Shown here piece after piece: positions 22,341 to 41,028 of a stretch of 64,000 bases of DNA. The stretch covers positions 22,328 through 86,327 of the forward strand of contig CAYJVT010000001.1 in the NCBI GenBank assembly GCA_964373695.1, given 5' to 3'. The stretch is from an uncultured archaeon. GTDB taxonomy: Archaea; Aenigmatarchaeota; Aenigmatarchaeia; GW2011-AR5. Position numbers and translations under genes: made by a program. How positions within the stretch are numbered: position 1 is the stretch's first letter; every line of letters starts with the position of its first letter. The notes below the pieces were generated by a model. That model worked only from the letters and a program-made list of their open reading frames with translations. It did not search any database and was not told the origin of the DNA.

Positions 22341-23804
22341 ATGTCGGAAATTCTTCTCATCCAGCCAAATATAGGCATACACGATTTCCTAGCCACCAGA
22401 TTCCCCGACCCTCTGCTCGCAATAGCCTCGGTGCCGCATATGAGGGGTTACAAGGTCAAGATACTTGACCAGAGGATAGAAAAAAACTTCAAGCATCTTC
22501 TGGAGCAGGAAATCGGAAAAAAGCCGCTGTGCATCGCCCTGCCTGTTATGACTGGCGGCCAGATACTCCGCGCCCTTGAGATATCGAAATTCATCAGAAG
22601 CATCGACAAAGACATAAAAATAGTCTGGGGCGGGCCGCATCCGACATTATTCCCTGTCCAGGTCTTGGAAAATGAAAATGTGGACATAATCGTGTCGGGC
22701 GAGGGCGAAATAACGTTTTTCGAGCTTGTCGAGGCTCTTTCAAAAGGCGCTCCTCTTTCAGGCATAAAAGGGATATCGTATAAGGAGGACAGCAGCATAA
22801 AAACGAATCCGGAAAGGGAGCTTATCAAAAATCTTGATGAGCTGCCGCCTATTCCATACGACCTGATAGACGCAAGCAAATATAATCCGACATACATATC
22901 AGGAAGGAAAGCCTTCACGCTCCTGACATCGAGGGGATGTCCATATCGATGCACGTTCTGCTTCGCTACTGCATACTACAACTTCACATGGCGCGGCTAT
23001 TCCGTGGACAGGACGATGGAAATGATACATGAAGCTGTCAACAAATTCGGCGCGCAGACAATACTGTTCCAGGAAGACAACTTCGCGACCAGCATACCGA
23101 GATGCAACGAGATATTTGACAGGATTATAGCGGACGGCCTCGACATTACGTTCAGCCTGGTGGGTATACGCGCCACCGATGTCGCAAGGATGGACCTGGA
23201 CAAGATGTACAAGGCCGGGTGCAGGAACTGCGACATGGGCGTCGAATCAGGGGACCCTGAAGTGATGAAAACCATGATAAAGGCCCTGACGCCGGAACTC
23301 GTCCTGGACGTGAACAGGAAGATAAGGGATTACGGCATAAAGGTGAAATATTCCTTCATAGCCGGCCTCCCGATGGAGAAGGACCCGAAGATATCGATAA
23401 ACTTCGCATTCAAGCTCATAAAGGAGAACAAGAACGCGTATACGCCGTTCTTCCCCTACACGCCTTTTCCGGGCACTGAAATGTACCATGCCGCGATAGA
23501 AAAAGGCTTTGTGCCGCCAACAACGCTCGAAGGCTGGGGCAATTTTGACCTGGAGCACTGGAGGGACCACTATCCCAGCTGGTACACAGAAGAGGAGAAG
23601 CGATGGATAGAGGGCATAGAAAGGATGTCGGTCCTAGGGAACCGCAACTCGAAATACAAGATATCAAACAAGACTTTCAGGTTTTTCTTCGACCTGTACC
23701 ACCCGATTGCCAAGTTCAGGTTCATGAGGAACTACTACGGGATGCCGCTTGACATAAAGATGCAGAACAAGGTCATGAATATGGTAGTCAAGACGCTTGA
23801 TTAA
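22341..23804 (+). CDS. B12-binding domain radical SAM enzyme (class B rSAM, probable C-methyltransferase or related)
   Basis: 487 aa with an N-terminal cobalamin-binding Rossmann domain and a radical SAM motif SRGCPYRCTFC (CxxxCxxC), then ...GVESGDPEV.... Confidence 0.85.
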   Translation: MSEILLIQPNIGIHDFLATRFPDPLLAIASVPHMRGYKVKILDQRIEKNFKHLLEQEIGKKPLCIALPVMTGGQILRALEISKFIRSIDKDIKIVWGGPHPTLFPVQVLENENVDIIVSGEGEITFFELVEALSKGAPLSGIKGISYKEDSSIKTNPERELIKNLDELPPIPYDLIDASKYNPTYISGRKAFTLLTSRGCPYRCTFCFATAYYNFTWRGYSVDRTMEMIHEAVNKFGAQTILFQEDNFATSIPRCNEIFDRIIADGLDITFSLVGIRATDVARMDLDKMYKAGCRNCDMGVESGDPEVMKTMIKALTPELVLDVNRKIRDYGIKVKYSFIAGLPMEKDPKISINFAFKLIKENKNAYTPFFPYTPFPGTEMYHAAIEKGFVPPTTLEGWGNFDLEHWRDHYPSWYTEEEKRWIEGIERMSVLGNRNSKYKISNKTFRFFFDLYHPIAKFRFMRNYYGMPLDIKMQNKVMNMVVKTLD

Positions 23805-25636
23805 TCAATAACAACGAGCTGCTCGTTCACGGATTTTTTTGTCTCTTCAAGATTCGGATAAAGGCTGAACGCCTCGAACTTGTCTCTCCAGTATTCCGAC
23901 TCGCTTAGATATTTCTCTACAAGCCGTATTCTTTCAGCCGCCCCGCCGACGTTGCCGGAATTAAACTCGCATGCGGCAAGCGTCATGTTTGCAAGCGCGT
24001 GGCCTGAAGTGACCACATCGCATATGTATCTCATCTGCCTGACGATCTTAGACAGCCTATCACGATCTTTTATGTTCATGACCCTCTCGTAATTTATTTT
24101 ATAATTCATGTAGAACCATATATCCATCAGCTGCTCCGAAGTCGGCTCCGCATCCAGGTTGCCGCTTTCGAATGGGTTGGCGAATTTTTTCACTTCCTTT
24201 TTGTGCTCGACGGTGTTCTGCTTCCCGTGGGGGCCTATCATGAACCGCGTTTCATTCGTCTGGAGCTTGTCCTCTATCAGGCCCTCTTTCACCATCGCCT
24301 TGTATATCGGGGTAGAGGGCAGAGGCTGCAGTATGTTCAGTGCATACCAGTCCAAGTCCAGCTCAAGTGCAAGGTTCATGGTATCGAGCATCATTCTCAG
24401 CGTTTCATGGGGAAAGCCCAGCATGAGGAAGCCGCGGGAGAATATCTTGGGATATTTCCTTAGAAGGGCCGCCGCATTCCTGAAATTGTCCACTGTCCCG
24501 GGCTTTTTTATGTCCAGAAGTATTTTCGGGTTTCCGGATTCGATGCCGAAGAAAAGCCCTATGCATCCCGATTCGGCCGTAGCCTCTATTATAGCAGGCT
24601 TGCACGCAGCAGCTATGACGCCGTTGGAGGCGTCCCATGTTATGCCGAGGTTGCGCCTTTTTATCTCCTGGAAAAGCTCTATTGTCCTCTTCTCGTTGAA
24701 GAAAAGGTCGTCGTCAAGCCACATTATATGCTTCACGCCGTATTTCCTGGCAAGGAGTTCTATCTCGTCCGCAACGCTTTCAATGCTTCTCTGCCTGACA
24801 CCCATGCCATTGAAGCTGCGGACGCTGCAGAACGTGCACATCGCCCGGCATCCCTTGTTGGAAAGCACGGTCGCGACCCTGGTTCCTGGCTCAAGCAGCG
24901 CAGTGAAGGAGCCGATGGTGCCCACGGAAGAATAATTCGATATATCGACAAGATCGTACGCCGGTATCCTGTTCAAATCATCCGTCTCCGGTGCCTTCCT
25001 TTCCTCCAGCGAATAATATTTGCCGCCTGCAATCACTGACACCTGATAAATCTCATCCCCATGACCGTTCGCGGCCTCAAGAAGCTTCTGGAAAGCCACC
25101 TCGCTCTCGTAGGAGCATGCTATGAGCCTTTCGTAGTCTATTGAGCGCAGAACCCTTTCTGTGTCGTTAGACACGTGAACGCCTCCGACAATTATCGGCA
25201 GTTCCTTTCCGGCGACCTCGCTGCATACTCGCACAAAGCTGTCGTGCGTCATCGTGAACATGCATGTTATGCCGACCGCGTCAGGCCTGAATTCGTCAAT
25301 CTTTCTGGCCAGAAGGCCTTTCCATTCGGCATCGTAATCCATCTTGCCCCCTGATTCCACGGCCCTCTTTATCACATGATAATTTAGGTCGACAATCTCG
25401 GGCTCGTGGCCATTCTCTCGCAAAACGTCGGCGAGAAGCAGCGGGCCATAAGGCGGATATGTATAACACCTTTTCTGCAATGCGGCCTCAAAGTTGAATT
25501 CCTCTGATGCGATGTCCGGCGGGTTGACGAGAAGCACCTTCCTAGCTTTTTTTCCGCCGAATATCTCGCGTATTCTCGCCAATATTGCCGCCTTCGCCTC
25601 CTGTCCCGGCTCGTGCTCTTTCAGAAGCTGCTCCAT
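23801..25636 (-). CDS. B12-binding domain radical SAM enzyme
   Basis: 611 aa with ...LLVNPPD... B12-like N-domain, NKGCRAMCTFC (CxxxCxxC) and ...FGIESGNPKIL.... Its stop codon overlaps the convergent rSAM gene's stop within the palindrome GATTAATC. Confidence 0.85.
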   Translation of the reverse strand: MEQLLKEHEPGQEAKAAILARIREIFGGKKARKVLLVNPPDIASEEFNFEAALQKRCYTYPPYGPLLLADVLRENGHEPEIVDLNYHVIKRAVESGGKMDYDAEWKGLLARKIDEFRPDAVGITCMFTMTHDSFVRVCSEVAGKELPIIVGGVHVSNDTERVLRSIDYERLIACSYESEVAFQKLLEAANGHGDEIYQVSVIAGGKYYSLEERKAPETDDLNRIPAYDLVDISNYSSVGTIGSFTALLEPGTRVATVLSNKGCRAMCTFCSVRSFNGMGVRQRSIESVADEIELLARKYGVKHIMWLDDDLFFNEKRTIELFQEIKRRNLGITWDASNGVIAAACKPAIIEATAESGCIGLFFGIESGNPKILLDIKKPGTVDNFRNAAALLRKYPKIFSRGFLMLGFPHETLRMMLDTMNLALELDLDWYALNILQPLPSTPIYKAMVKEGLIEDKLQTNETRFMIGPHGKQNTVEHKKEVKKFANPFESGNLDAEPTSEQLMDIWFYMNYKINYERVMNIKDRDRLSKIVRQMRYICDVVTSGHALANMTLAACEFNSGNVGGAAERIRLVEKYLSESEYWRDKFEAFSLYPNLEETKKSVNEQLVVID

Positions 25637-26213: not shown

Positions 26214-27149
26214 ATGCAAGCTGCAAGGATGGAAGACTATCTGTCTTCTTTGGGATTCAGAGACCTGACAATATATTTGGGCACTGCTGTCAGTATCGGA
26301 AGCCAATCGCTTTTGGACGCGAATAGGCATCTTTTTTCAGAGGATTTTGAAATGAAACCTGACGGTTCGATGGTTGGCGTTCTTGACAAAACAAGCGATG
26401 TGGCCATTGCAGCATATCTTAATTCTACTCCTGCAACTGAAGCCTGCAGATTCAGGTCAGAGGAAGGGATGGAATTCAGGCAGCCGTCTGAATATGAATA
26501 TGGGGCAATAATAGACCCTTTGGACGGAAGCATAAATCCACGAATAGGCGGGACAAACTTGCACTACATCGGAGTGGGCGGGGCTATTCACCAAAAGCCC
26601 GATGATGAACAGGTTGCTGCGGCAGCCTGTCTGCCTTTTGATGACGATGCCTTGTACGTGACGGAATGGGGAAAAGGAGTCTATAGAGTAACAAATACTG
26701 ATGGAGATTTTCAGTCAAGAAAATTGACGGTACCTGAGAAGCCTGCCCAGACAAATACTTTTATACAGTCAGGATGGCGGACTCCTTACACAAGAAAGGC
26801 GGAGGAAGCGCTTCACAGAAGCGGATTTTACGAGGAACTTGACTTCAACGCAGGCGACACGGTGACTGCCGGTATCTTCCAGACAATTTCCGGTATAAGG
26901 GATTACAGACAGGTCGTGATTAATATCGCGGCTACGCATCAGGCGGATTTTTGCTATCTGTTCCTTAAGGAAACAGGTATGAATCCCATAGCAAACGACG
27001 GCAGACCGATACATTCACAGGCATGCGCTATGCTTTCCGTATCGCCATCATACAGCAAAGATGCAAGTAGGCTTAAAGGAAAATTTGTCGAAGCTTTGCA
27101 TGATTACAGCGGCCATAACAACACCGGCATGCAGCGCGTCTGCGACTAA
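26214..27149 (+). CDS. Inositol-monophosphatase family phosphatase (IMPase/FBPase/CysQ-like)
   Basis: ...AIIDPLDGSINP... metal-binding motif with an upstream Glu and C-terminal Asp motifs. The start is uncertain (26214 or an internal Met at 26352). Confidence 0.65.
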   Translation: MQAARMEDYLSSLGFRDLTIYLGTAVSIGSQSLLDANRHLFSEDFEMKPDGSMVGVLDKTSDVAIAAYLNSTPATEACRFRSEEGMEFRQPSEYEYGAIIDPLDGSINPRIGGTNLHYIGVGGAIHQKPDDEQVAAAACLPFDDDALYVTEWGKGVYRVTNTDGDFQSRKLTVPEKPAQTNTFIQSGWRTPYTRKAEEALHRSGFYEELDFNAGDTVTAGIFQTISGIRDYRQVVINIAATHQADFCYLFLKETGMNPIANDGRPIHSQACAMLSVSPSYSKDASRLKGKFVEALHDYSGHNNTGMQRVCD

Positions 27150-27179: not shown

Positions 27180-27824
27180 ATGCCAGGTCTCATAATACAG
27201 CACCGCGTCAACAATATAGGCGCGCTCCGCAAGATACAACCAAAATACGGCGTGGAGATAGACATCCGTCACGACAACAGGACAGGCAGCCTGTATCTGA
27301 ACCATGACCCGGGAGAGGGCGACGACTTCTTTGAATATTTGGATGTTTTCGCGGAGCAGGGCAACCGCTTCGCTATATTCAACCCGAAAGAAATCGGCAT
27401 TGAGCAGCGAATAATAGAAGCTGCCAAGGAACGCGGCATTGAGGACTACTTCCTTCTCGACCTTGAATTCCCTTTCATATATCGTGCCGCTCAAGGCGGC
27501 GTGCCAAACATCGGCAAACGCATCGCCATCCGCTATTCAGAGGCCGAGCCTTTGGAGCAGGCAATGCTGCTCAAAGGCAGGTTTGACTGGGTATTCGTCG
27601 ACGTCAACACTCGCCTGCCGCTCGACAAAAAAATATGCAATATGCTTGATGAAGCAGGCTTCAGGACCTGCATCGTATGCCCGTCGCGCTGGAAGCGTCC
27701 TGATGACATACCAAAGTTCATAGAGCAGATGAAGAAAGAAGGCATAAAGATAGACGCTGTCATGACCAAGGACCCGTATGCAGAACAGTGGGAGAACAGC
27801 GGCGTTGTGAGGCCGTTCAAATGA
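27180..27824 (+). CDS. Glycerophosphodiester phosphodiesterase-like (GDPD/PI-PLC-X TIM barrel), short form
   Basis: MPGLIIQHRVNN...GVEIDIRHDNRTGSLYLNHD... follows the GDPD pattern HR...E-I-D-I...DG..V..HD. The C-terminus reads ...GIKIDAVMTKDP. Confidence 0.5.
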   Translation: MPGLIIQHRVNNIGALRKIQPKYGVEIDIRHDNRTGSLYLNHDPGEGDDFFEYLDVFAEQGNRFAIFNPKEIGIEQRIIEAAKERGIEDYFLLDLEFPFIYRAAQGGVPNIGKRIAIRYSEAEPLEQAMLLKGRFDWVFVDVNTRLPLDKKICNMLDEAGFRTCIVCPSRWKRPDDIPKFIEQMKKEGIKIDAVMTKDPYAEQWENSGVVRPFK

Positions 27825-28648
27825 CAAACCTCGTCCCGATGGCAGGGCTCGGGAAGCGCTTCTCTGACGAAGGCTACAGCTTGCCGAAGCCGCTGATACC
27901 AGTGTCAGGCAGGCCGATGATAGTGCAGGCAATAAGGAGCATGCCTTCTGACAAGGATTGGGTTTTCGTGTGCAGGAAGGAGCACATAGAAAAATATCAT
28001 GTTGACAAAATCCTCATGAAGGAAGCGCCTTCCTGTAAAATCATTGCCGTTGACAAAACGACAGAAGGACAGGCATCCACATGCCTCCTCGCAAAGGGCT
28101 TCATAGACATGGAAAAGCCGCTTTTCATAGGCGCGTGCGACAACGGCATGGTATTCGACAGGGAGAAATGGAAAAAGCTTACTTCTGACAAGAGTATAGA
28201 CGCAATAATTCTGACATTCACGAGGCAGCCCAACATGACAAGAAATCCCAAGGCGTGGGGCTGGGTTGTTAATGACAATGGCGTTGTGCGGGATATATCT
28301 GTAAAAGTGCCTGTGAGCGACGACCCTTTCAACGACCACGCCGTCGTGGGCTCGTTCTGGTTCCGCACCGGCCAGGTATTCGTTGACGCGGCGGAGCAGA
28401 TGATAGCCTCCAACAAGCGCACGAACAACGAGTTCTATGTCGATTCTGTGCCCATGGAAATCATCGCGAACGGCGGCAAGGTCATGATATTCGACCTGAA
28501 GCAGTACATAGGATGGGGAACCCCCATAGACCTCCGCGAGTACGAGCATTGGGAATCTGCCATATTGAAGGGCGCCTCAGAGCAAGACAGGAAATCCGAT
28601 TTTTACGGCTTCTGGAAGGATTATTTCACGAAAAACATGATAAGATGA
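27821..28648 (+). CDS. Sugar/polyol-phosphate nucleotidyltransferase, WGTP-motif family (paralog 1 of 4 domains)
   Basis: MTNLVPMAGLGKRFSDEGYSLPKPLIPVSGRPMI... with a C-terminal ...YIGWGTPIDLREYEHW. The ATGA overlap with the upstream gene supports the start at 27821. Confidence 0.75.
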   Translation: MTNLVPMAGLGKRFSDEGYSLPKPLIPVSGRPMIVQAIRSMPSDKDWVFVCRKEHIEKYHVDKILMKEAPSCKIIAVDKTTEGQASTCLLAKGFIDMEKPLFIGACDNGMVFDREKWKKLTSDKSIDAIILTFTRQPNMTRNPKAWGWVVNDNGVVRDISVKVPVSDDPFNDHAVVGSFWFRTGQVFVDAAEQMIASNKRTNNEFYVDSVPMEIIANGGKVMIFDLKQYIGWGTPIDLREYEHWESAILKGASEQDRKSDFYGFWKDYFTKNMIR

Positions 28649-28691: not shown

Positions 28692-31172
28692 ATGGGGCTC
28701 GTGGAAAGGCTTGAAGCGGGCGACAGGATAGGAAGCCAGTTTTCAAGGTTCGTCGTCATAGGCGGCATAAGCACGCTGATAAACTACGCCGTTTTCCTCG
28801 TCCTGTATGCCATGCTTTCCGTAAACTACCTTGTCGCGTCAGCCGCCGGCTACGTGGTCGGCGCCGTCTTTGGATATTACTTCAACGCCCGCCTGACCTT
28901 CAGGAGCAGGCCCGGCCTCAGCGTGATGCCCTATTTTGCCGTATACCTGTTCTCGCTGGTGGCGGGTCTTGGGGTGCTGAGGTTCTTCTCTGTGTCGGCC
29001 GGCATAGAGCCGCTGTTTTCAAACGTGATTTCAATAGCGTTCACGGCGGCGGCCAACTTCCTGGGGTGCAGGTATCTGGTTTTCGGCGGCCTGAAAATAC
29101 CTTCGGTATTCAAAAGTAAGGCATTCCTGTCTGTGCTTGCCTTAAAGATAATTTTCGCCTTTCTTTTAGCCTCGGACTTCATGACGCAGCTCTTCATACC
29201 GTTTGTGCAATATTTCGTCGGGAACCCGCTTTCAAATCCCTACCAGCATTTCATCGACATAGGCAACGTGAAGGCGTTCCCGTACCCCCCATTCATGCTC
29301 CTGGTAGTCTCCGTCCCGTACATGCTGTTTGGCGTCTTCAGCGGGCCGTTTTTTGAGCTTTTCGCGATGCGTATACCGCTTCTGGCGGCCGACATAGCGA
29401 TATTCTACGTTCTGTACAGGATTCTGGACGGGAAGAAGGTGATGCTCCTCTACTGGGCGTCCCCTGTGGTGTTCTACATAACGTATATCCACGGCCAGCT
29501 CGACATAATACCCGTGGCGCTCCTGTTCCTGTCAGCCTATTTCCTCAAAGGCCGTCAGTACGTGAAATCCGCGGCCCTCCTGGGCGCCGGCATCGCGGCG
29601 AAGTCGTTTGTCTTCGTGGCGCTTCCTCTTTACCTCGCTTACCTGATAAAGAAAAAAATCCGCTGGATAGGGACGGCTGCATTTTTCGCCATTTCCCTGG
29701 GGATGTATGCCGCCTTCCTCGTGCCCTTTGTCTTCAGCGAAGGCTTCGTCCGCATGGTATTCGGCGCCGAGGAGCAGTTCAGGCTGTTCAATCTTTCGGT
29801 GGATTTAACCCTTGGCCTGGTCTATTACATAGTTCCTGCAGCCTATGCATACATACTTTTCAAGGCATTCTCCTTCAAGAGGATGACGAGTGACATGCTG
29901 TTCGTCCTTCTGGGCATGACCCTTACATTTCTTGTCACGTTCATACATCCTGAGCGCGGCTGGTATATGTGGGCTATCCCGTTCGTAATCTATTTTCTGG
30001 TGAAGGAGAGGATAAGCGTATGGATTTACTCGGCTTTCAATGCCGCGTACCTCCTTTACTTCCTTTTCGTTCCGGACTCGGACGTGTTCCGCGTATTCCA
30101 GGTGGTGTGGCCATCTATATCATCACTGATGACGCCGTACTACATGCTGGTTTCCGCAGGAATCCCATCGGACATACTGGTCAACGTCCTGTTCACCGCC
30201 ATGACGTCGGCGCTGCTTTACCTTACGTACATAATCTACAGGAGGGGCGTCAGAAGCGGTCTGCTGTTCCAGGAGAAGAACGGAATACCGATAATAGGGA
30301 TAGGAGGCGACTCAGGCTCCGGCAAGACCACCCTTGCGAAGACTCTTTCGGAACTGTTTGGCAGGGAGCGCGTGACGACTGTATACGGGGATGACATACA
30401 CAGATGGGAGAGAAAAGACAGTAACTGGGAAAAGTATACGCATCTCAACCCTGCCGGAAACAGAATTTACCTGAATTACAGGCAGATAAGGAAGCTGAAG
30501 GGCGGCGCCACGATAAGCAGGCCGCATTACGACCACGGCACCGGGAAATTCACTTCCCCGTCCAGTATAAAGCCGAGAGACATAATAATCTCCGAAGGCC
30601 TCCATACGTTTTTCATCAGCGAATCCAATAGCATCTACGAAATAAAGGCTTTCCTTGACCCCGATCCATCATTAAGAGTTCTGTGGAAGCTCAGGCGTGA
30701 TATGAAGCTCAGGGGATACTCAAAGAAGGAGGTAATGAAGAAACTTGGGCAAAGAAGGCGCGACTCAGACAGGTTCATCGCGCCGCAGAAGATGTATGCC
30801 GACATGGTGATTTCTTACATGCCTGAAGGGAAGGTGAGCTTTTCCGACATTGAAAATGACGTTCCTGTAAGGCTGCAGATCGACGTGAAGAACGACATAC
30901 CGCTCGAAGGTTTTCTGGAGGCTGCGTCCGGAATAAAATCTCTCGGCATAGAGATGGAATACCATGACCACAGATTCCAGCGCATGGTGTTCAGGGGCGG
31001 CGCTTCGGTGGAAGATATTGGAAATCTGCTGAACTCCCTTGACATAGATTACGAAACGTACGAAATAGACAGGAACGGAATCAGGGGCGGGTTCGACGGC
31101 ATTTTACAGGTTATTTTCCTTTATTGCCTCAACGAAAGGCTCAAGGTGCTGGGTGGTGGCGGCGATGAATGA
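28692..31172 (+). CDS. Three-domain fusion: GtrA-like module + GT-C-like polytopic membrane domain + phosphoribulokinase/uridine-kinase-family P-loop kinase
   Basis: aa 1-125 FSRFVVIGGISTLINYAVFLVLY...FLGCRYLVFG (GtrA); aa ~130-520 carry >10 hydrophobic helices; aa ~525-826 carry GIPIIGIGGDSGSGKTTLAKTL (Walker A) and ISEGLHTFF...FLDPDPSLRVLWKLRRDMKLRGYSKKEVMKKLGQRRRDSDRFIAPQKMYADMVI (PRK signature region). Confidence 0.8.
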   Translation: MGLVERLEAGDRIGSQFSRFVVIGGISTLINYAVFLVLYAMLSVNYLVASAAGYVVGAVFGYYFNARLTFRSRPGLSVMPYFAVYLFSLVAGLGVLRFFSVSAGIEPLFSNVISIAFTAAANFLGCRYLVFGGLKIPSVFKSKAFLSVLALKIIFAFLLASDFMTQLFIPFVQYFVGNPLSNPYQHFIDIGNVKAFPYPPFMLLVVSVPYMLFGVFSGPFFELFAMRIPLLAADIAIFYVLYRILDGKKVMLLYWASPVVFYITYIHGQLDIIPVALLFLSAYFLKGRQYVKSAALLGAGIAAKSFVFVALPLYLAYLIKKKIRWIGTAAFFAISLGMYAAFLVPFVFSEGFVRMVFGAEEQFRLFNLSVDLTLGLVYYIVPAAYAYILFKAFSFKRMTSDMLFVLLGMTLTFLVTFIHPERGWYMWAIPFVIYFLVKERISVWIYSAFNAAYLLYFLFVPDSDVFRVFQVVWPSISSLMTPYYMLVSAGIPSDILVNVLFTAMTSALLYLTYIIYRRGVRSGLLFQEKNGIPIIGIGGDSGSGKTTLAKTLSELFGRERVTTVYGDDIHRWERKDSNWEKYTHLNPAGNRIYLNYRQIRKLKGGATISRPHYDHGTGKFTSPSSIKPRDIIISEGLHTFFISESNSIYEIKAFLDPDPSLRVLWKLRRDMKLRGYSKKEVMKKLGQRRRDSDRFIAPQKMYADMVISYMPEGKVSFSDIENDVPVRLQIDVKNDIPLEGFLEAASGIKSLGIEMEYHDHRFQRMVFRGGASVEDIGNLLNSLDIDYETYEIDRNGIRGGFDGILQVIFLYCLNERLKVLGGGGDE

Positions 31173-32097
31173 ACTTGAATGGCTCGTAAAGACCTCAGGG
31201 AATATCGGAAGCGACCCAAGGCTTGTCCAGGGCACCGGGGGCAACCTGTCAGTGAAGCTCGGCGGAAAGATGATGATAAAATCCTCCGGGGTCAGAATGG
31301 ATGCTGTCAGTAACGGCAGCGGATGGAGCGTCGTCGACCACGGGAAGATAGCCGGCATATATTCAAGAAGATTAACAGAGGAAGACGCCGGGAGGGTTTT
31401 GGAAGAAGCCATTATCGAAGGCTCAAAGCCCTCGATAGAGACGGGGTTTCACTCGTTTCTTGAAAAATACGTCATTCACGTCCACCCTGTCCATCTTAAT
31501 GTCATTCTGTGCTGTGAAAAAAGCGCTGAAATTATGTCCGAAATTTTCTCGCCGGACGAATTCACCTGGGTTCCTTATACCAAGGTAGGCCACAGACTGG
31601 CAGCAGAGATAAAAGACCGCGGCCATGACAGAGGGATTATATTCCTGGAAAATCACGGTGTGATAATATCATCAGACAGCCCCAAGGACTGCACAGAAAT
31701 TCTTTCGTCTGTCGAGGAGCGTGTAAGAAAATACCTAGAGTCAAAAATCCGGCCGTTCGAGCCGTTTTCATATACGATACCAAGGGAAGCGGAAGGCTGC
31801 TATGTCAGCACTTCCGAAGCGGTTCTGCGCGGCAGGTCGGGAATTTTCTCCGGCTTTCTTTTCCCTGACGCCGTCGTCTTCTCCTTGCCGGAAAAGATAA
31901 AAGCTGACGCCAAGGGCGTAACGTATTTAATGGATTATGCGAATGCTGTAAACGTTGATGGCGTGCTGGCGGCTCATGCATACATAAAGGAAAATGCCGC
32001 AAAGCTCGGCATGCTGAAATACCTCACGGAAATGGAAATCAGCGACATAATAGGCATGGAATCTGAAAAATACAGGAGAAAGATGGTTGGATTATGA
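31165..32097 (+). CDS. Class II aldolase/adducin-family protein (FucA/AraD/MtnB-like aldolase, epimerase or dehydratase)
   Basis: ...GNIGSDPRLVQGTGGNLSVKLGG... matches the class II aldolase N-terminal motif, with metal-ligand His residues (HSFLEKYVIHVHPVH). ATG at 31165 overlaps the upstream stop (ATGA). Confidence 0.7.
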   Translation: MNELEWLVKTSGNIGSDPRLVQGTGGNLSVKLGGKMMIKSSGVRMDAVSNGSGWSVVDHGKIAGIYSRRLTEEDAGRVLEEAIIEGSKPSIETGFHSFLEKYVIHVHPVHLNVILCCEKSAEIMSEIFSPDEFTWVPYTKVGHRLAAEIKDRGHDRGIIFLENHGVIISSDSPKDCTEILSSVEERVRKYLESKIRPFEPFSYTIPREAEGCYVSTSEAVLRGRSGIFSGFLFPDAVVFSLPEKIKADAKGVTYLMDYANAVNVDGVLAAHAYIKENAAKLGMLKYLTEMEISDIIGMESEKYRRKMVGL

Positions 32098-32963
32098 AAG
32101 TGATAATACCGGCGGCCGGGATTGGCCAGAGATTTCTGGATGCCGGATATAAAAAACCGAAGCCGCTGATACTCGCCGACGGCATCCCGTTTGCCAGGCA
32201 TGTGGCAAATATGTTTTCCCCTAGCGATGAGTTTGTTTTCGTGTGCAATGAAGAGCACCTGAAAACGACGGAGATGCGCAGCGTCGTCGAAAGCGTCGGC
32301 CGCATAGTTTCCATAAAGCCCCACTCCCTCGGCCCTGTGCACAGCGTTCTTGCCGCCTCTGACCTCATAGAGGAAGATGAGCCTGTGATGGTCTGCTACT
32401 GCGATTTCTACGAATGGTGGGATTATCAGCATTTCAAAGATACAGTGAAAGAAAGCGGATGCGACGCGGCCGTCACCGCGTACACCGGATTCCACCCCCA
32501 CCTTCTGGGCACCGGCCTATACGCCTCGATGAAAGTGGAAAACGGCTGGATGCTGGAATGCAGGGAGAAGCACAGCTTTACGGAGGACAAGATGGACAGC
32601 TTCCACCAGACTGGAAAGTTTTACTTCTCCACCGGAAGCATTTTGAAAAGGTTCTTCAGTGATATAAAGGAAAGGAACCTCGTAGTGAACGGTGAATTCT
32701 ACATCAGCGTCGTGACGCAGGCGATGGTGGAGGCGGGCCTGAAGGTGATGGTATATCCGGTGGAGCATTTCCTCCAGTGGGGCACGCCGCAGGAGCTGGA
32801 GGAATACACGCAGTGGTCAGGGTACTTCTCGGGCAAGAACGGGTTGCCGGAGGCTTTCGACGAAAGGAGCTTAGGATACTGGGAATCGTTCTTCAGGAAA
32901 TGCCCGTGGCATCCGTACGGAAAAGGTGGGGCTCATGATAAAGGGGATTATGCTAGACCTTGA
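32094..32963 (+). CDS. Sugar/polyol-phosphate nucleotidyltransferase, WGTP-motif family (paralog 2)
   Basis: MKVIIPAAGIGQRFLDAGYKKPKPLILADGIPF... with a C-terminal ...FLQWGTPQELEEYTQW. ATGA overlap with the aldolase gene. Confidence 0.75.
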   Translation: MKVIIPAAGIGQRFLDAGYKKPKPLILADGIPFARHVANMFSPSDEFVFVCNEEHLKTTEMRSVVESVGRIVSIKPHSLGPVHSVLAASDLIEEDEPVMVCYCDFYEWWDYQHFKDTVKESGCDAAVTAYTGFHPHLLGTGLYASMKVENGWMLECREKHSFTEDKMDSFHQTGKFYFSTGSILKRFFSDIKERNLVVNGEFYISVVTQAMVEAGLKVMVYPVEHFLQWGTPQELEEYTQWSGYFSGKNGLPEAFDERSLGYWESFFRKCPWHPYGKGGAHDKGDYARP

Positions 32964-33594
32964 CAACACCCTCTATGACTATGAAACCTGCAATGAATAC
33001 GCAAAATACGAGCTTTTCCGCAAAATCGAGGGCGATATGGGCGTTGCCGGCGCCGAAAAGGCGTTCGACGAAGCAAGAAAATCCGTGAAGAAGTCTCTTG
33101 AGAAGACGGCGGCCGGCCATTCGCGCCTTCTTTACATAGGGAAGGCGCTAGAGGCCCTTGGCATAAGCGCACTCCATTCGGTGCGCTATCATGATTTTTT
33201 CTGGGAAAAATATTTCGAGAAAATGGAGCTTTTCGAGAGCGTCGCGGATTTTCTCGAGCATGCAAAAAATTCCGGGATGAAAATCTGCATAGTCACGGAC
33301 CTCACCGCCGAAATCCAGATGAAGAAAATAATCCACCTCGGGATAGAAGGCTATGTAGATTTTATCGTGTCGTCTGAGGAGGTGGGTGAAGATAAGCCGT
33401 CATCGAAGGTGTTCTGCATGGCCCTAGAGAAGATGGGTATGAAAAAGGAGGATGTTGTTATGGTGGGGGACGACGAGGAAAAGGACATAAAAGGCGCGGA
33501 AAATGCAGGCATCCGTGCGGTGAAGGCGGACCCTTCCATCTTTGCATCCGGGAGGCTCGTGGAAATCCTGCAGGCGGCGGATAGGTTTAAGTAA
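32935..33594 (+). CDS. HAD-superfamily hydrolase (subfamily IA-like phosphatase)
   Basis: MIKGIMLDLDNTLYDYE... (motif I DxDxT), ...CIVTD... (motif II), ...KP... and ...VVMVGDDEEKDIKGAENAG... (motifs III/IV). Confidence 0.8.
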   Translation: MIKGIMLDLDNTLYDYETCNEYAKYELFRKIEGDMGVAGAEKAFDEARKSVKKSLEKTAAGHSRLLYIGKALEALGISALHSVRYHDFFWEKYFEKMELFESVADFLEHAKNSGMKICIVTDLTAEIQMKKIIHLGIEGYVDFIVSSEEVGEDKPSSKVFCMALEKMGMKKEDVVMVGDDEEKDIKGAENAGIRAVKADPSIFASGRLVEILQAADRFK

Positions 33595-33616
33595 ATTTTT
33601 TGCGTATCTTTGGAAT

Positions 33617-34246
33617 ATGATACTGCTCCCGAAGCTCAGGCTCGGCGTAACCGCATTTTCGGGCCCAGAATCCGTGGAAGCGATAAGTAAAATGGGGGTC
33701 AGGCATGTGAACATCCCTTCATCTCTCCTGAATGCTGACAACGCCGGTGCCTACATGGAGAACGCCAAAAAATTCAATATCACAATCGAGGCCGTGTGCA
33801 CCGGCGGCTCGGATAATTTCGCGGAGCTGGCGGCAGCCGTGGGAGCGAAGGCACTGTGCATAGCCTTGGATGACATAAGCCTTATCGGAGCCGTTTCGGA
33901 CAGCGCCAAGAGCACAGGACTTAATTATCTGATATGGGAACCTGCAGGCATCGGTATGGAAGACTGTAAAAGGACTCTGACAGACATCAGCAAGACGTCT
34001 GCCATTCCTGTGAAGCTCGCACTCTCTCTCGAGTCGGATAACATCTACGAGATGTCGAGAATTATAGGAAAGGACGCCATGATAATCATAAGGAGGAAGG
34101 AAGACATTGCAATACTCGGGAAGGTTATCGACAGCCTGAGAACGGGTGGCTCTAGGGAAAACATGATAATGCTGGATATGCCTTCGGCAGCCATTGACAG
34201 CCTCGAGACCTCGGTGGACTACTGTAGGAGTTTCGTCAGAGAGTGA
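33617..34246 (+). CDS. Hypothetical protein, possibly TIM-barrel-like
   Basis: ~210 aa from MILLPKLRLGVTAFSG.... No confident family. Its position in the operon supports a real gene. Confidence 0.35.
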   Translation: MILLPKLRLGVTAFSGPESVEAISKMGVRHVNIPSSLLNADNAGAYMENAKKFNITIEAVCTGGSDNFAELAAAVGAKALCIALDDISLIGAVSDSAKSTGLNYLIWEPAGIGMEDCKRTLTDISKTSAIPVKLALSLESDNIYEMSRIIGKDAMIIIRRKEDIAILGKVIDSLRTGGSRENMIMLDMPSAAIDSLETSVDYCRSFVRE

Positions 34247-34251
34247 AATTA

Positions 34252-35151
34252 ATGACAAAAATCAAATTCGGCACTGACCTTGACTTTGCGGTTAACAGGT
34301 ATCCGGAGCCTGAGGAATGGGCACGCGTCCTGTCGGAAGAGCTTGGCGTCAGGCATGCCCAGTTCCGCTCCGACCTCATCCAGCCGCATTTTTCCGATGA
34401 AATAATAAATGAGCAGGCTGAAAGGGTAAGAGCCGCATGCAAGGAATACGGAATCAGGCTGGAGCATGCGTTCACCAGCCAGAGATGGGCCTACTGCGGC
34501 CATCCTGACGCAAAAATAAGGGAATACTGGCACTGGTGGCTGAAGCGCTATTCTGATATTGCTGCAAAAGTCGGTGCGCGGAGCGCAGGAAGCCGCCTCG
34601 GCATATACAGCATGAAAGACCTTTCAACAAGGAAGGAGTTCATTCTAAAGGAGATAATGAGTTTCTGGAAGAAATGGGCATCTTATTCGAAGAAGGCCGG
34701 CCTTGACTGCCTGACATTCGAGCATCTCTCAATCCCGAGGGAGCTTGCCGACACGATAGAAGGCGCAAGACAGGTGCTTGACATGGCAAAGGGCTCCGAA
34801 ATTCCAATCCTGTTGTGCCTTGACACCGACCAAGGAAATGTGATGTCCGGAAACCCGAAGGATGGCGACCCGTACGAATGGCTCAGGGAATTCGGCAAAG
34901 ACGCGCCTATCCTGCACCTCAAACAGAGAATAAGAGGCAACGCCTCGTCTGGCAAGCCGTTCACGCCCGAAAACAACAAGGAAGGAATGATAATACCGGA
35001 GAAAGTCGTGGAAGCACTTGAAGAAAGCGGAGCGAAGGAAGTCAACCTTTACCTTGAGCCTTCATTCCGCGAACGCCTGCCGCAGGACAACAACGTAATC
35101 AGTGACCTCAGGCAGTCGGTCAACTTCTGGAAGCCTTACGCCGACGAATAG
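34252..35151 (+). CDS. Xylose-isomerase-like TIM-barrel protein (sugar-phosphate isomerase/epimerase family)
   Basis: 300 aa. MTKIKFGTDLDFAV... and the spacing of conserved E/H/D residues (...TFEHLS..., ...LCLDTDQGN..., ...LHLKQ...) are typical of the AP-endonuclease-2/xylose-isomerase-like fold. Confidence 0.6.
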   Translation: MTKIKFGTDLDFAVNRYPEPEEWARVLSEELGVRHAQFRSDLIQPHFSDEIINEQAERVRAACKEYGIRLEHAFTSQRWAYCGHPDAKIREYWHWWLKRYSDIAAKVGARSAGSRLGIYSMKDLSTRKEFILKEIMSFWKKWASYSKKAGLDCLTFEHLSIPRELADTIEGARQVLDMAKGSEIPILLCLDTDQGNVMSGNPKDGDPYEWLREFGKDAPILHLKQRIRGNASSGKPFTPENNKEGMIIPEKVVEALEESGAKEVNLYLEPSFRERLPQDNNVISDLRQSVNFWKPYADE

Positions 35152-35179: not shown

Positions 35180-35752
35180 TCACTCCAGATTCGCGTGGTA
35201 TTTCCACAGCTCTTCGCCGGGAATGCTTTTCCTGCCTTGTATCATCAAAGATACTATGTCCCCGAATACGTGGAGTGACTGGTCAAAGAGCGTGCTCATG
35301 GGCTGTATAGACTTCACGCCTTCCTGCATATTGGTCTTCGTCGGGCATTTCAGGTGGACGCACATGTCTGCAAGAGATTTTATTGTGGATTGCTCCGAAG
35401 ATGTAATGAGAGCCAGCTTGGCGTTGTGCTTCTTCGCTATCTGCGATATTGTGACAGGAACCTTGCTCTCGCCTGAGCCGCTGGCGACTATGAGGAGATC
35501 GCGCGGCGTTATGGCCTTTTCTGCGACGGAGCCGACGACGTGGCAGTCTATGCCCAAATGGCTTAAGCGCTTTGCCATGCACTGCAAGGAAAGGAATACG
35601 CGGCCGACTGCTATGAAGAATACTTTCTCGGCTCTCAGTATTTCTTCCACTAGCGCATCCACTTCGTTTGTATCGACCATTTTCGTTACGCTGTATATCT
35701 CGTCCAGGACAGACACTGTGAACTTGCTGTATTCGTGCTCCATAAACATCAC
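35180..35752 (-). CDS. SIS-domain sugar isomerase, 6-phospho-3-hexuloisomerase (PHI)-like
   Basis: 190 aa with ...KVFFIAVGRVFLSLQCMAKRLSHLG... and ...LLIVASGSGES..., an SIS pattern with PHI-like length. Confidence 0.65.
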   Translation of the reverse strand: MMFMEHEYSKFTVSVLDEIYSVTKMVDTNEVDALVEEILRAEKVFFIAVGRVFLSLQCMAKRLSHLGIDCHVVGSVAEKAITPRDLLIVASGSGESKVPVTISQIAKKHNAKLALITSSEQSTIKSLADMCVHLKCPTKTNMQEGVKSIQPMSTLFDQSLHVFGDIVSLMIQGRKSIPGEELWKYHANLE

Positions 35753-36789
35753 GGTTCCACGACGACCTTCAGGCCGTCACGGTTTTTTACTGTTTCAAAC
35801 GCCTTTAAAATATCGTCAAGTGGGAATTTGTGAGTTATGATATTTTTCGTCTTTATGTCTCCGTTTGCAAGCAGCTCCAGGGCCTTCCTGTGGTGATCTT
35901 TTGTGGAGGAAAATGAGCCGCCGACGGCGAACTGCCTGTAATGCATGTAGTTGTTCTGGAATGTCACGGTGTCGTCGGTGCCTTTCGGCACGCCGCCAAA
36001 AAGGTTCACGAAACCGCCCTTTGCCACAGCCTGGATGCAGGCGCGATGCGCATTTATGTCACTGCACGCCGAAACAACGATATCATATCCCCTTCCGCCT
36101 GTCAGCTCTATGGACTCCTCAAGGAAGTCGTTGTTCTCCGAATGGATATAATGGTCGGCGCCTGTAGGCCTTGACATCTCAAGCCTTTTCTCATTCCTGT
36201 CAACAAGAACAGCCATCGAGGCGCCCATTATCTGTGCCGTATTTATCATGAGATTTCCTATCGGCCCAGCCCCTATCACGAGCACACTTTTCCCTTCTTT
36301 CATGCCGGCGAATTCCAGCCCGTTGTATACGCATGCGAGCGGCTCTGCAAAGGACGCCTCGACAAAGTCGAGGTTCTTCGGCATGAAATTAATCGGCCCG
36401 CGTTCCGCCGCTTCCTTCGGCAAAAGCAGATATTCAGCGAAGCCTCCCGGGACGGTCGAGCCTATGGAGATAACATTCTGGCAAAGCATGTCCAGGCCCC
36501 TCCGGCATTCCTCACAGTTTCTGCATGATATCTCATTACCCATGGCAAGCCTGTCTCCAATGCTGAAATTCTCCACGCCTTTTCCAATTTCAGTAACAGT
36601 GCCGGCGATTTCGTGCCCCATTACAAAGGGGAATTTCTTTATCCTGTCGCCGTACTCGTAGAACCTGAGGTCTGAGCCGCAGACGCCGCATGCGCCAACC
36701 TTAAGGAGTATCTCACCTTCTTTCGGGACAGGCGTTTCGACATCCCCGACCCTCATATTTTTGGGGCTTTCAAGAAGGGCGGCTTTCAT
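35749..36789 (-). CDS. Zinc-dependent alcohol/polyol(-phosphate) dehydrogenase (MDR family)
   Basis: 346 aa with ...GACGVCGSDL...GHEIAG... (catalytic Zn), CRNCEECRRG (structural Zn) and GAGPIGN (Rossmann). Confidence 0.85.
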   Translation of the reverse strand: MKAALLESPKNMRVGDVETPVPKEGEILLKVGACGVCGSDLRFYEYGDRIKKFPFVMGHEIAGTVTEIGKGVENFSIGDRLAMGNEISCRNCEECRRGLDMLCQNVISIGSTVPGGFAEYLLLPKEAAERGPINFMPKNLDFVEASFAEPLACVYNGLEFAGMKEGKSVLVIGAGPIGNLMINTAQIMGASMAVLVDRNEKRLEMSRPTGADHYIHSENNDFLEESIELTGGRGYDIVVSACSDINAHRACIQAVAKGGFVNLFGGVPKGTDDTVTFQNNYMHYRQFAVGGSFSSTKDHHRKALELLANGDIKTKNIITHKFPLDDILKAFETVKNRDGLKVVVEP

Positions 36790-38518: not shown

Positions 38519-38520
38519 AA

Positions 38521-39593: not shown

Positions 39594-40286
39594 ATGACAA
39601 AGCTTTCCGTTATACTCCCGTGCTACAACGAGGGGGAGAACATACCGCTCATTCTTGAGAGATATTCGCAGGTTGCGAAGAGGGTGCCTATGGAGCTCGT
39701 CTTGGTCGATAACGGCTCTACGGACGGGACTGAAGGCATCCTCAGAAAGGAGCTCCCGAAATACAAGTTCGCAAGGTCTGTGAAAGTCGGAAAGAACATA
39801 GGGTACGGCTTCGGCATCCTTTCTGGCCTCAGAACCGCCAAGAGCGGGTATCTGGCGTTCTCCCATGCCGACATGCAGTGCGACCCCAGAGACATAGAGA
39901 AGGGGTGGAAAATTCTCATATCATCCGTCTCCCCGGAAAGGACGCTGGTAAAGGGCAACCGCGAGGGGAGGGCGAACTTCTTCACGTCATGCTTCCATGC
40001 GGCATCCTCTGCCGTCCTTATGAAGCATTTCGACGACGTCAACGGCCAGCCGAAGATATTCCATAAAGACCTTCTGGGAATGATGAAGAAGCCGCCGAAC
40101 GGGTTTTCTCTGGACCTTTACGTTCAGTACACCGCCCTCAGGAACGGATTTGCCGTCAGAAGCTTCCCGGTGAAATTCAAGAGAAGGCTTCATGGGAAGT
40201 CCAGCTGGGCGACCGGCATACGCTCAAGAGCGAAGACGATAGCCGGAATGTCCGCATATATTCTGAAGCTCAGGATGGGGCTTTAG
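39594..40286 (+). CDS. GT2 glycosyltransferase (dolichyl-phosphate sugar synthase-like)
   Basis: MTKLSVILPCYNEGENI...VDNGSTDGT...SHADMQCDP (DxD-equivalent). Confidence 0.8.
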   Translation: MTKLSVILPCYNEGENIPLILERYSQVAKRVPMELVLVDNGSTDGTEGILRKELPKYKFARSVKVGKNIGYGFGILSGLRTAKSGYLAFSHADMQCDPRDIEKGWKILISSVSPERTLVKGNREGRANFFTSCFHAASSAVLMKHFDDVNGQPKIFHKDLLGMMKKPPNGFSLDLYVQYTALRNGFAVRSFPVKFKRRLHGKSSWATGIRSRAKTIAGMSAYILKLRMGL

Positions 40287-40317: not shown

Positions 40318-41028
40318 ATGTCCAGACCAGAGCTTTCCGTGGTTGTCCCGTTTTACAACGAGCAGGACAACGCAAAAACAGTTCTATCCGGCCTCGGCAA
40401 CGCCCTGGATGATATAAATTACGAAATCATAGCCGTCAACAACGGCTCTACAGACAATACGGCGTCCGTGCTCCGTGAGGTGAAAAACAGCAGAATAATA
40501 ATCGTGACAGTGGAAAAAAACATCGGATTCGGCTACGGCATCAGAAAGGGCCTGGAATCGGCGAAAGGCAAATATCTCGGCTACATGTGGGGGGACAACC
40601 AGATTTCCGCCGGCGTCGTCGCGGAGATTTACAGGAAGCTCGCCAAAGAGGGGCTGGATTTGTGCAAGATAAGGCGCGCCGCAAGGGATTACGGATTTTT
40701 CAGGAAGCTTGAATCCGCCGCATACAACAGGATATTTCTGGCGCTGTTTTTTGGGAAGATAAGCAACGACATAAACGGAAGCCCCAAGATAATGAAGAGG
40801 GCGCTTTACGAAAGGCTGGGCCTGGAGTCAAACGACTGGTTCATCGACACGGAACTCATGGTGAAAGTGAAGGTCCTGGGCGGCAGGGTTGGCGAAGTGA
40901 AGGCTGCCTACAACAAGAGAAGCAAGGGAAAGTCCAAAGTAAAGTTCTACGTCATGATGGAATTCCTCTCAAATATCCTCAGATTCAGGTTCAGCGGGCT
41001 CAAGAAATTTAAAGACTCCGTAGACTAG
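40318..41028 (+). CDS. GT2 glycosyltransferase, paralog of 39594..40286
   Basis: MSRPELSVVVPFYNEQDN...VNNGSTDNT...WGDNQ. Confidence 0.75.
   Translation: MSRPELSVVVPFYNEQDNAKTVLSGLGNALDDINYEIIAVNNGSTDNTASVLREVKNSRIIIVTVEKNIGFGYGIRKGLESAKGKYLGYMWGDNQISAGVVAEIYRKLAKEGLDLCKIRRAARDYGFFRKLESAAYNRIFLALFFGKISNDINGSPKIMKRALYERLGLESNDWFIDTELMVKVKVLGGRVGEVKAAYNKRSKGKSKVKFYVMMEFLSNILRFRFSGLKKFKDSVD

Follow-up and report, generated by a model that had tools for sequence, protein, structure and literature searches.

What does a sugar-phosphate kinase do at the end of a membrane-embedded glycosyltransferase? The question is raised by a gene at positions 28692..31172 (+ strand) of a 64,000-nucleotide stretch of DNA from an uncultured archaeon, which in its whole length is called the window here. 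The gene starts with ATG and encodes, in 826 codons with no internal stop, a protein (P0001) that consists of a GtrA-type four-helix membrane module (aa 19-131; 28746..29084, +), a glycosyltransferase domain with the GT-C fold (aa ~132-530; 29085..30281, +) and a complete kinase domain with the phosphoribulokinase (PRK) fold, predicted to be cytoplasmic (aa 534-826; 30291..31169, +). P0001 is a lineage-specific three-part form of a widespread, undescribed enzyme, GT-C~PRK (the tilde denotes fusion within one polypeptide chain), which belongs to a conserved cassette of eight genes. In the reading preferred here, to which we give about an even chance of being right, the membrane-tethered PRK would commit ribulose 5-phosphate (Ru5P), by way of ribulose 1,5-bisphosphate (RuBP) and ribulose 1-phosphate (Ru1P), to a lipid-linked donor, from which the GT-C domain would transfer the unit outside the cell.

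Three domains in one polypeptide chain

The reading of the protein as GtrA, GT-C-like and PRK segments with a Walker A motif, made in the original prediction, was borne out by Pfam, NCBIfam and an AlphaFold2 (AF2) model. In Pfam, the whole protein matches GtrA_DPMS_TM (PF04138) over aa 19-131 with an E-value of 1.7e-18 (67 bits, cut-off 26) and PRK (PF00485) over aa 534-715 with an E-value of 2.2e-38. The latter match covers 195 of the 196 model positions and, at 132.5 bits, lies far above the cut-off of 22, as a PRK-family assignment of the C-terminal segment demands. The AF2 model of the whole protein, calculated from an alignment of 43 homologues, has a pLDDT of 91 and a pTM of 0.83. In it, the four helices of the GtrA module are followed by a helical bundle in the membrane and, from about aa 534 on, by an α/β domain. 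The long helices of the GtrA module span aa 16-41, 46-69, 78-102 and 107-130. GtrA, a GT-C-fold transferase and a complete PRK fold make up one polytopic membrane protein.

The join between the three parts is not chimeric, because independent assemblies share the same three-part protein. They include the nearest public relative of the fusion gene, found with 92% identity in a groundwater metagenome-assembled genome (MAG) of a Candidatus Aenigmatarchaeota archaeon. The open reading frame (ORF) is one uninterrupted gene, as originally read. About 12 protein clusters of 822-843 aa in the protein database show the GtrA~GT-C~PRK architecture, and an exact-sequence look-up of P0001 in public assemblies returned no record. 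Relatives had been expected in Thermoplasmata and Euryarchaeota; the host is instead a DPANN archaeon, nearest to Candidatus Aenigmatarchaeota.

All domain families of P0001 were known already. What is new is the coupling of a PRK to extracytoplasmic glycosylation, together with the RuBP/Ru1P precursor pathway that this coupling implies. Literature searches returned no description of a PRK fused to a GtrA, GT87, DUF2029 or GT-C domain, nor of the cassette. The fusion is novel in this sense, but it is not rare: 416 species genomes contain GT-C~PRK, and plasmids carry it too.

A fold search was required for the middle part of the protein, because sequence searches of the membrane part against the PDB, with the single sequence and with a 43-row profile, gave no match. 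Residues 132-532 modelled alone gave a pLDDT of 95 (AF2), and the first 29 Foldseek matches of the domain in the PDB are all GT-C-fold membrane proteins. The best structural match is ALG6 with a TM-score of 0.66; GPI mannosyltransferase I gives 0.59 and PimE, a GT87 enzyme, 0.48. Further GT-C-fold matches are ArnT, STT3/AglB, ALG3/9, AftA and PIG-U, a GT-C-like subunit of GPI transamidase. The sequence match is marginal: GT87 (PF09594) matches the middle part scanned alone with an E-value of 1e-5 (25.9 bits, cut-off 25), is not reported for the whole protein, and is carried as a precomputed match by some GT-C~PRK homologues only. The segment originally described as GT-C- or DUF2029-like has the GT-C fold by structure.

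Invariant in this domain among the 43 homologues are F196-P197-Y198, D234, H267, Q269, D271, K304 and W424. Whereas its fold is that of ALG6, GPI mannosyltransferase I and PimE, the domain has no significant sequence match to a solved GT-C protein and has a motif set of its own (FPYPP, HGQLD..P). According to the model, it is a GT-C-fold enzyme outside any characterised family. D234 and D271 are invariant acidic residues, and one of them may be the catalytic acidic residue that GT-C enzymes have in their first extracytoplasmic loop.

The kinase domain and the RuBisCO of the host

The kinase domain carries the Walker A sequence GDSGSGKT at aa 539-546. PF00485 spans both PRK and uridine kinase activities, and the JGI and NCBI pipelines name several members of the family 'uridine kinase'. 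A uridine/cytidine kinase might salvage nucleotides for nucleoside diphosphate (NDP) sugars beside the transferase. In a PDB sequence search, however, residues 520-826 match Synechococcus PRK (6KEV and 6HZK) with an E-value of 4e-40, Methanospirillum hungatei PRK (5B3F) with 4e-37 and plant PRKs with ~1e-31, the better PRK matches ranging from 1e-40 to 4e-37, whereas uridine/cytidine kinases reach just ~1e-15 to 1e-12. The identity to PRKs in the printed alignments is roughly 40% across the catalytic ~190 residues. The top NCBIfam model is PRK07429, of the cyanobacterial/archaeal-type PRK subfamily, which scores 205-209 bits and aligns from position 9 to position 236 of its 326; with the proteobacterial PRK model the score is 47 bits. 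The cut-offs of the uridine kinase models PRK05480 (88 bits, cut-off 180) and TIGR00235 (80 bits, cut-off 220) are not reached.

The last ~300 residues of the AF2 model superpose on complete PRK structures, with Foldseek TM-scores of 0.79 for 9QKP and 0.77 for 5B3F over 306-320 alignment columns. Because the model aligns over ~310 columns to whole PRK chains, the PRK-specific C-terminal domain is present. A homodimer prediction for two copies of the kinase domain with their own alignment scored 0.00; it was run without controls, and no claim about a dimer is made either way.

In the M. hungatei enzyme, His55, Arg59, Tyr98, His100 and Lys151 serve Ru5P and Arg154 serves ATP, and these residues are conserved in all PRKs (Kono et al., PMC5241800). 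Through the alignment to Synechococcus PRK they correspond to H570, R574, Y613, H615, K666 and R669 of P0001. All six, as well as K545, D567, D670 and R674, are invariant across 43 family members. By these positions, the kinase retains all the PRK residues for ATP and for the phosphate of Ru5P, and we conclude that it is PRK-like in its substrate site as well as in its fold. The PRK identity is upheld, and the uridine kinase reading is rejected on the model scores, the PDB E-values, the PRK C-terminal domain and the PRK-type sugar-phosphate site (H570/R574 and Y613/H615); it is the least likely of all the explanations considered here.

Earlier candidates for the substrate were ribitol, ribitol-5-P or a lipid-linked sugar. 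They now seem less likely than Ru5P, because the sugar-phosphate residues are invariant and the partner phosphatase of the HAD superfamily, encoded nearby, resembles RuBP 5-phosphatase. The kinase domain shares with PRKs (5B3F; 6KEV/6HZK; the 'cyanobacteria-specific PRK' 9QKO/9QKP) the ~300-residue fold, the P-loop and the Ru5P/ATP residues. It differs from them in being the C-terminal domain of a polytopic membrane protein, in having neither redox cysteines nor a CP12 context, in being tied to glycan genes instead of RuBisCO and the Calvin cycle, and in forming its own clade together with a viral-type family.

If the kinase were a bona fide PRK, it might make RuBP for a form III-type RuBisCO, in a partial Calvin- or reductive hexulose phosphate-like route. 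No RuBisCO gene is found in the window, as had been stated, but the host genome (1.02 Mb, 91% complete) has one copy of the large-subunit gene on another contig (C8:6276-7205). The fused kinase is the sole PF00485 homologue in this genome, and the RuBP that it made could leak to RuBisCO. The gene cluster around the fusion also has a 6-phospho-3-hexuloisomerase, an enzyme of the ribulose monophosphate pathway (35180..35752, - strand; TIGR03127, 167.8 bits, cut-off 160). Ru5P should be available in the host, because RpiB was found in its genome in addition to this isomerase; family models for 3-hexulose-6-phosphate synthase, RpiA and ribulose-phosphate 3-epimerase had no match in the 91%-complete genome.

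The RuBisCO of the host nevertheless has partners of its own. A gene for AMP phosphorylase (545 bits, over the cut-off) adjoins an IF-2B-family gene of the ribose 1,5-bisphosphate (R15P) isomerase type (C2:337-1020, C2:1032-2474), and the two are the usual nucleotide-salvage supply of RuBP to RuBisCO. Furthermore, RuBisCO was not found in five other genomes that carry the kinase (three Flavobacteriaceae isolates and two DPANN MAGs), the kinase lies almost always among glycan genes, and its presence in 5 of 201 genomes of the phylum is unlike the wider spread of RuBisCO reported for DPANN (PMC6389311). Because five carriers are without RuBisCO and that of the host has its own partners, the kinase serves neither a Calvin cycle nor the supply of RuBisCO; this role, which is very unlikely in view of the glycan context too, is rejected.

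DPANN archaea are reported to be generally without PRK (PMC6389311), and KofamScan made no PRK call in 446 Nanobdellota genomes (bioRxiv 10.64898/2026.05.13.725050). Fused, sub-threshold PRK domains could escape such threshold-based screens. The host has a complete nucleotide-salvage route to RuBP, a second potential source of RuBP in the fused PRK and a potential sink in the HAD phosphatase.

The eight-gene cassette and its proposed pathway

The surroundings of the kinase gene were compared in 83 loci, namely the 80 best tblastn loci and three others, with ORFs called in this analysis. They define a cassette of eight genes, which encode a protein resembling phospholipase C (PLC) or glycerophosphodiester phosphodiesterase (GDPD), the HAD phosphatase, GtrA, GT-C~PRK, a class II aldolase-like protein, two nucleotidyltransferases and a family 2 glycosyltransferase (GT2). 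Loci from different phyla repeatedly show the order PLC-like, HAD, (GtrA), GT-C~PRK, aldolase, nucleotidyltransferase B, nucleotidyltransferase A, GT2. In the window, the fusion gene has as its companions, all on the + strand, the 214-aa PLC/GDPD-like protein P0121 (27180..27824; homologue in 63 of the 83 loci), nucleotidyltransferase-like protein A (27788..28648; 78/83), the class II aldolase-family protein (31153..32097; 72/83), nucleotidyltransferase-like protein B (32094..32963; 79/83), the HAD phosphatase (32926..33594; 60/83) and a GT2 of ~230 aa (39594..40286; 67/83).

The aldolase gene starts 20 nt before the 3' end of the fusion gene, which it thus overlaps, and it lies directly downstream of the fusion in most loci. 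Most other cassettes have GtrA as a gene of its own beside GT-C~PRK; the GtrA~GT-C~PRK fusion, with 11 of the 83 loci, is uncommon. Other members are fused as well: aldolase to HAD in one locus (L026), nucleotidyltransferase A to GT2 in seven loci, and the two nucleotidyltransferases to each other, as proteins of ~520-550 aa, in Flavobacteriaceae, plasmids and viral contigs. A GT-C~PRK~aldolase protein of ~1,060 aa is encoded in three loci of the candidate phyla radiation (CPR), from Kaiserbacteria, Saccharibacteria and Parcubacteria (L053:9914-13090, L054:4155-7331 and L058:9947-13126).

The HAD protein of the window is closest to the NCBIfam family NF053830, the haloarchaeal RuBP 5-phosphatase (E-value 1.3e-53, 182 bits; next family 124 bits). 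All 42 cassette HAD proteins out of 42 match this family at E-values up to 1e-10, and the best E-value in the set, 4e-60, comes from it. The aldolase-family protein (PF00596, E-value 2.6e-17) has its best NCBIfam matches in rhamnulose-1-P aldolase-type domains, its match to ribulose-1-P aldolase is weak, and the cassette aldolases form a distinct, longer subfamily of ~300-350 aa. Nucleotidyltransferase-like protein A matches PF00483 and PF12804, with distant RmlA/GlmU-type matches, and protein B matches PF12804 with an E-value of 2e-12; the PDB relatives of both are just marginal. The GT2 (PF00535; ArnC-, PpgS- and AglJ-type models) is a candidate polyprenyl-phosphate glycosyltransferase. P0121 has no Pfam match even at an E-value of 10, and a single-sequence PDB search with it was empty. 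Its profile finds PI-PLC (E-value 0.8) and GDPD (E-value 2) below threshold only, and an atlas lead points the same way. The assignment is weak because it rests on the NCBI annotation of plasmid orthologues, which are labelled PI-PLC/GDPD family.

The fusion gene sits, as had been proposed, among genes for pentulose-phosphate and nucleotide-sugar enzymes. The variable neighbours of the cassettes are ordinary glycan genes, such as TylF-type methyltransferase, Wzy_C, PMT_2 and epimerases. The earlier idea that the kinase feeds a glycan decoration is supported. The cassette may well be a self-contained, horizontally mobile unit for decorating surface glycans, with GT-C~PRK as its signature component; the chances for and against this seem evenly divided.

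The proposed pathway begins at the cytoplasmic face of the membrane, where the tethered kinase would make the 1,5-bisphosphate from Ru5P or from another pentulose-5-phosphate much like it. The HAD phosphatase would take the 5-phosphate off RuBP, leaving Ru1P. The aldolase-family enzyme, by epimerase, aldolase or dehydratase chemistry, would then produce a nucleotide-activated unit together with the two nucleotidyltransferases and the PLC-like protein. This unit would be transferred by the GT2 to polyprenyl or dolichyl phosphate, moved across the membrane by GtrA, and placed on a surface glycan, lipid or protein by the GT-C domain. The fusion of kinase and transferase would anchor the committed first step at the membrane, probably within a metabolon, and would draw Ru5P from central metabolism solely where the carrier lipid sits. 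Ru5P is favoured as the substrate, and Ru1P as an intermediate, because a PRK, a RuBP-phosphatase-like HAD and an aldolase-superfamily enzyme occur together and are sometimes fused.

Several points weigh against this pathway, and the weakest one in it is the donor. A GT2 donor must be anomerically activated, and the phosphate of Ru1P is on a non-anomeric carbon. Because of this, at least one step, that of the aldolase-like protein, the PLC-like protein or the second nucleotidyltransferase, would have a chemistry that cannot be assigned, and the roles given above to the aldolase-like and PLC-like proteins are guesses. The kinase (205 bits) is below the PRK07429 cut-off of 236 bits and the HAD protein of the window (182 bits) is below the equivalog cut-off of NF053830, 330 bits. 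Some of the 83 loci are incomplete, and their ORFs were self-called. That the kinase acts inside and the catalytic loop of the GT-C domain lies outside is inferred from the folds of the two membrane parts, GtrA and GT-C, and from the ATP that the kinase requires. All the reactions assigned to cassette members, including the phosphorylation of Ru5P by the kinase, are putative and were read from sequence relationships.

An anomeric phosphate, as the nucleotidyltransferases and the GT2 need, would be obtained directly if the kinase phosphorylated C1 of ribose 5-phosphate (R5P) or arabinose 5-phosphate (A5P). The HAD protein would then remove the 5-phosphate, an NDP-pentose would be made, and the GT2 would form a polyprenyl-P-pentofuranose, similar to decaprenyl-P-ribose or -arabinose, for use by the GT-C domain. 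The order of kinase, HAD, nucleotidyltransferase and GT2 parallels that of HddA, GmhB and HddC. In the GDP-D-glycero-D-manno-heptose pathway (GmhA, HddA, GmhB, HddC), a monophosphate is turned by a kinase into a bisphosphate, on which a HAD phosphatase and then a nucleotidyltransferase act. The cassette shares this logic, whereas its kinase is a membrane-tethered P-loop PRK and not a GHMP kinase, and its sugar would be a ketopentose and not an aldoheptose. In mycobacteria, GtrA-family and GT-C partners likewise serve polyprenyl-P-arabinose. Phosphorylation at C1 is at odds, however, with the invariance of the PRK residues that bind open-chain Ru5P and with the similarity of the HAD protein to a phosphatase whose substrate, RuBP, is a ketose bisphosphate, and it leaves the aldolase-family and PLC-like proteins unexplained. 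We consider it unlikely, though less so than the other departures from the proposed pathway.

The GtrA/GtrB/GtrC-type systems, including mycobacterial PpgS, Rv3632 and Rv3779, resemble the cassette in bringing together a small GT2, a GtrA-family protein and a GT-C protein. Here, in contrast, GtrA and GT-C are fused, a sugar-phosphate kinase is added, and the precursor comes from a dedicated pathway encoded in the cassette instead of a housekeeping NDP-sugar.

The fate of Ru1P might also be cleavage. In haloarchaea, the RuBP 5-phosphatase, which converts RuBP to Ru1P, and a class II aldolase, which splits Ru1P, share an operon and have both been characterised experimentally (Sato et al. 2022, PMC9700705). 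Homologues of the two enzymes are present in the cassette. Ru5P would then go via RuBP and Ru1P to dihydroxyacetone phosphate (DHAP) and glycolaldehyde, and a C2 or C3 fragment, for example of the glycerol-phosphate or glycol type, would be activated by the nucleotidyltransferases, handled by the PLC/GDPD-like protein and used as a phosphodiester decoration, a chemistry that suits a PLC/GDPD-family protein. DHAP is free in Flavobacteriaceae and E. coli, however, so that the ATP cost would make little sense. Moreover, the cassette aldolase belongs to its own, longer subfamily with that weak Ru1P-aldolase match, and GT2/GtrA/GT-C systems normally move a glycosyl unit. This use of Ru1P is judged improbable, more so than phosphorylation at C1. 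The haloarchaeal non-carboxylating pentose bisphosphate pathway has the same nearest HAD family and a class II aldolase-family enzyme side by side, as the cassette does, but it is catabolic and obtains its RuBP from nucleosides via R15P isomerase (PMC9700705), whereas in the cassette a PRK would supply the RuBP, and the neighbouring genes encode nucleotidyltransferases and glycosyltransferases.

A more specific version of the proposed pathway would make the cassette the missing route to an activated ketopentofuranose donor, a ribulo- or xylulofuranose. Xylulofuranose, for which no donor pathway is known, is present in the O95 and O97 O-antigens of E. coli, and no genes for nucleotide precursors of D-Ribf or Xulf are reported in the O-antigen clusters (review, PMC7685785); it is also present in some chlorovirus N-glycans (PMC9614988). 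Literature searches found no pathway to an activated pentulose (NDP-ribulose or NDP-xylulose). PRK would make RuBP and the HAD protein Ru1P, which, unlike Ru5P, could close to a furanose. The aldolase-family enzyme might set the stereochemistry, from ribulo- to xylulo-. A nucleotidyltransferase, the PLC-like protein via a 1,2-cyclic phosphate and the second nucleotidyltransferase could then shift the activation to the anomeric C2, after which GT2, GtrA and GT-C would put the pentulose on the cell surface. This route is speculative; in probability it ranks behind phosphorylation at C1 and ahead of cleavage.

Soluble relatives, distribution and mobility

The kinase has relatives without a membrane part. 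A FastTree phylogeny of the catalytic cores places the fused kinases together with a family of ~426-482-aa proteins, composed of an N-terminal domain and PRK (97 rows, local support 100), and this joint group is separate from PRK-like proteins of 220-335 aa. Cluster look-ups yielded hardly any names for stand-alone kinase relatives; the tree has long branches, no outgroup and no labelled characterised PRKs, so that just the grouping of fused and viral-type kinases is used here. IMG/VR contains relatives of the viral-type kinase on 181 contigs, among them several named giant-virus MAGs; in the phage collection none was found. No mention of giant viruses with PRK homologues turned up in the literature searches. 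By BLAST and hidden Markov models, the first ~200 residues of the viral-type kinases are neither PLC-like nor HAD-like.

The viral-type loci (L088/L090, on the 159-kb contig IMGVR_UViG_3300023174_006137, L089 and L092-L170) have as neighbours of the kinase a class II aldolase or a HAD~aldolase fusion, the latter beside the viral-type PRK, a double nucleotidyltransferase, and glycosyltransferases of eukaryote type (GT47, Fringe, GT61 and GT11). An aldolase lies within 3 kb in 71 of the 83 viral-set loci that were fetched, and nucleotidyltransferases lie within the same distance in 61; GtrA, GT2 and GT-C are essentially absent from them. That the sister clade keeps the aldolase and nucleotidyltransferases without the membrane part argues that kinase, aldolase and nucleotidyltransferases form a portable set whose product is a soluble activated unit, to which cells add export by GT2, GtrA and GT-C. 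If the unit were a ketopentofuranose, this soluble core would serve giant viruses too, there in combination with Leloir glycosyltransferases.

In cellular genomes, GT-C~PRK relatives are present in 416 of 185,579 species genomes (one genome per species). The best 80 of the 416 belong to DPANN, many CPR/Patescibacteria, Bacteroidota, Rickettsiales and other Alphaproteobacteria, Gammaproteobacteria, Melainabacteria, Omnitrophota and Rokubacteria. Eudoraea adriatica DSM 19308 and Zeaxanthinibacter enoshimensis DSM 18435 are carriers among the cultured Flavobacteriaceae. More than 100 protein clusters contain GT-C~PRK proteins of ~700 aa, from Flavobacteriia, Chitinophagia, Gammaproteobacteria, Babeliales and others. 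Where the proteins are named in the databases at all, the names are 'glycosyltransferase 87 family', 'uridine kinase' and 'phosphoribulokinase'. The possibility, raised at the outset, that the fusion is widespread and already annotated with a known function came true in its first half, but these names are generic only.

Within the phylum of the host, the kinase is present in 5 of 201 sampled genomes and in none of the 15 of the host family. The fusion is thus an accessory, patchily distributed gene. The other four carriers belong to one genus and have a two-part form of ~710 aa with 35-38% identity, which suggests separate acquisitions within the phylum.

Complete cassettes are found on plasmids, one of them from Azospirillum brasilense (NZ_CP032350.1; L173). 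Another is on a 33-kb IncR plasmid of E. coli from human stool (p5-S1-CAM-01-A, NZ_CP145712.1, 6022-14984; L172), beside IS26. It encodes a double nucleotidyltransferase, GtrA, GT2, a PI-PLC/GDPD-family protein, GT-C~PRK (annotated 'uridine kinase'), HAD, a class II aldolase and a 586-aa hypothetical protein. An identical copy is on a second E. coli plasmid, from a bullfrog isolate, which makes 2 of 5,426 complete E. coli genomes.

The cluster in the window contains further genes. The 6-phospho-3-hexuloisomerase is outside the conserved cassette (83 loci), and an ORF that overlaps it on the opposite strand (35223-35840, +) has no family match and is probably spurious. A double nucleotidyltransferase (36911-38518, +; Pfam), a protein type that occurs in 31 of the 83 loci, is followed by a Zn-dependent polyol-phosphate-type dehydrogenase (38512-39555, +), whose best match, galactitol-1-phosphate 5-dehydrogenase with 217 bits, is below the cut-off. 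In layout these two genes recall a TarI/TarJ-like CDP-polyol branch, an arrangement peculiar to the cluster of this genome. A second Zn-dependent dehydrogenase is encoded at 35749-36789 (-). Pfam and NCBIfam identify a second GT2 (40318-41028, +), an NDP-sugar epimerase/dehydratase (41035-41970, +) and a PMT_2-type GT-C protein (41957-43429, -). Three other proteins are not conserved in other cassettes: a 311-aa protein with a faint FBPase/IMPase-type match (26214-27149, +) and, at 33542-35151 (+), a 234-aa protein without a match and a xylose-isomerase-like TIM-barrel protein. A methyltransferase-type radical SAM protein with B12 binding, which could be a glycan C- or P-methylase, is encoded a short way upstream of the cluster (23801-25636, -). 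A radical SAM relative adjoins the fusion in another archaeal MAG (L004:6830-8281).

The presence of PRK is taken to indicate carbon fixation through RuBisCO. Because a PRK fold with an intact Ru5P site is joined here to a membrane glycosyltransferase, in hundreds of species of which most apparently have no RuBisCO, PRK homologues cannot be read as evidence of a Calvin-type pathway. If the ketopentofuranose proposal were true, one of the two signature enzymes of the Calvin cycle would have a second, widespread life in glycan synthesis, and the activation of xylulofuranose could be accounted for. The cassette is a compact, apparently self-sufficient pathway, probably for an unrecognised surface sugar, and it reaches episymbiotic lineages, in which the cell surface matters most and is known least. 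Since it is present in cultured Flavobacteriaceae and on an IncR plasmid of E. coli, the hypothesis is directly testable.

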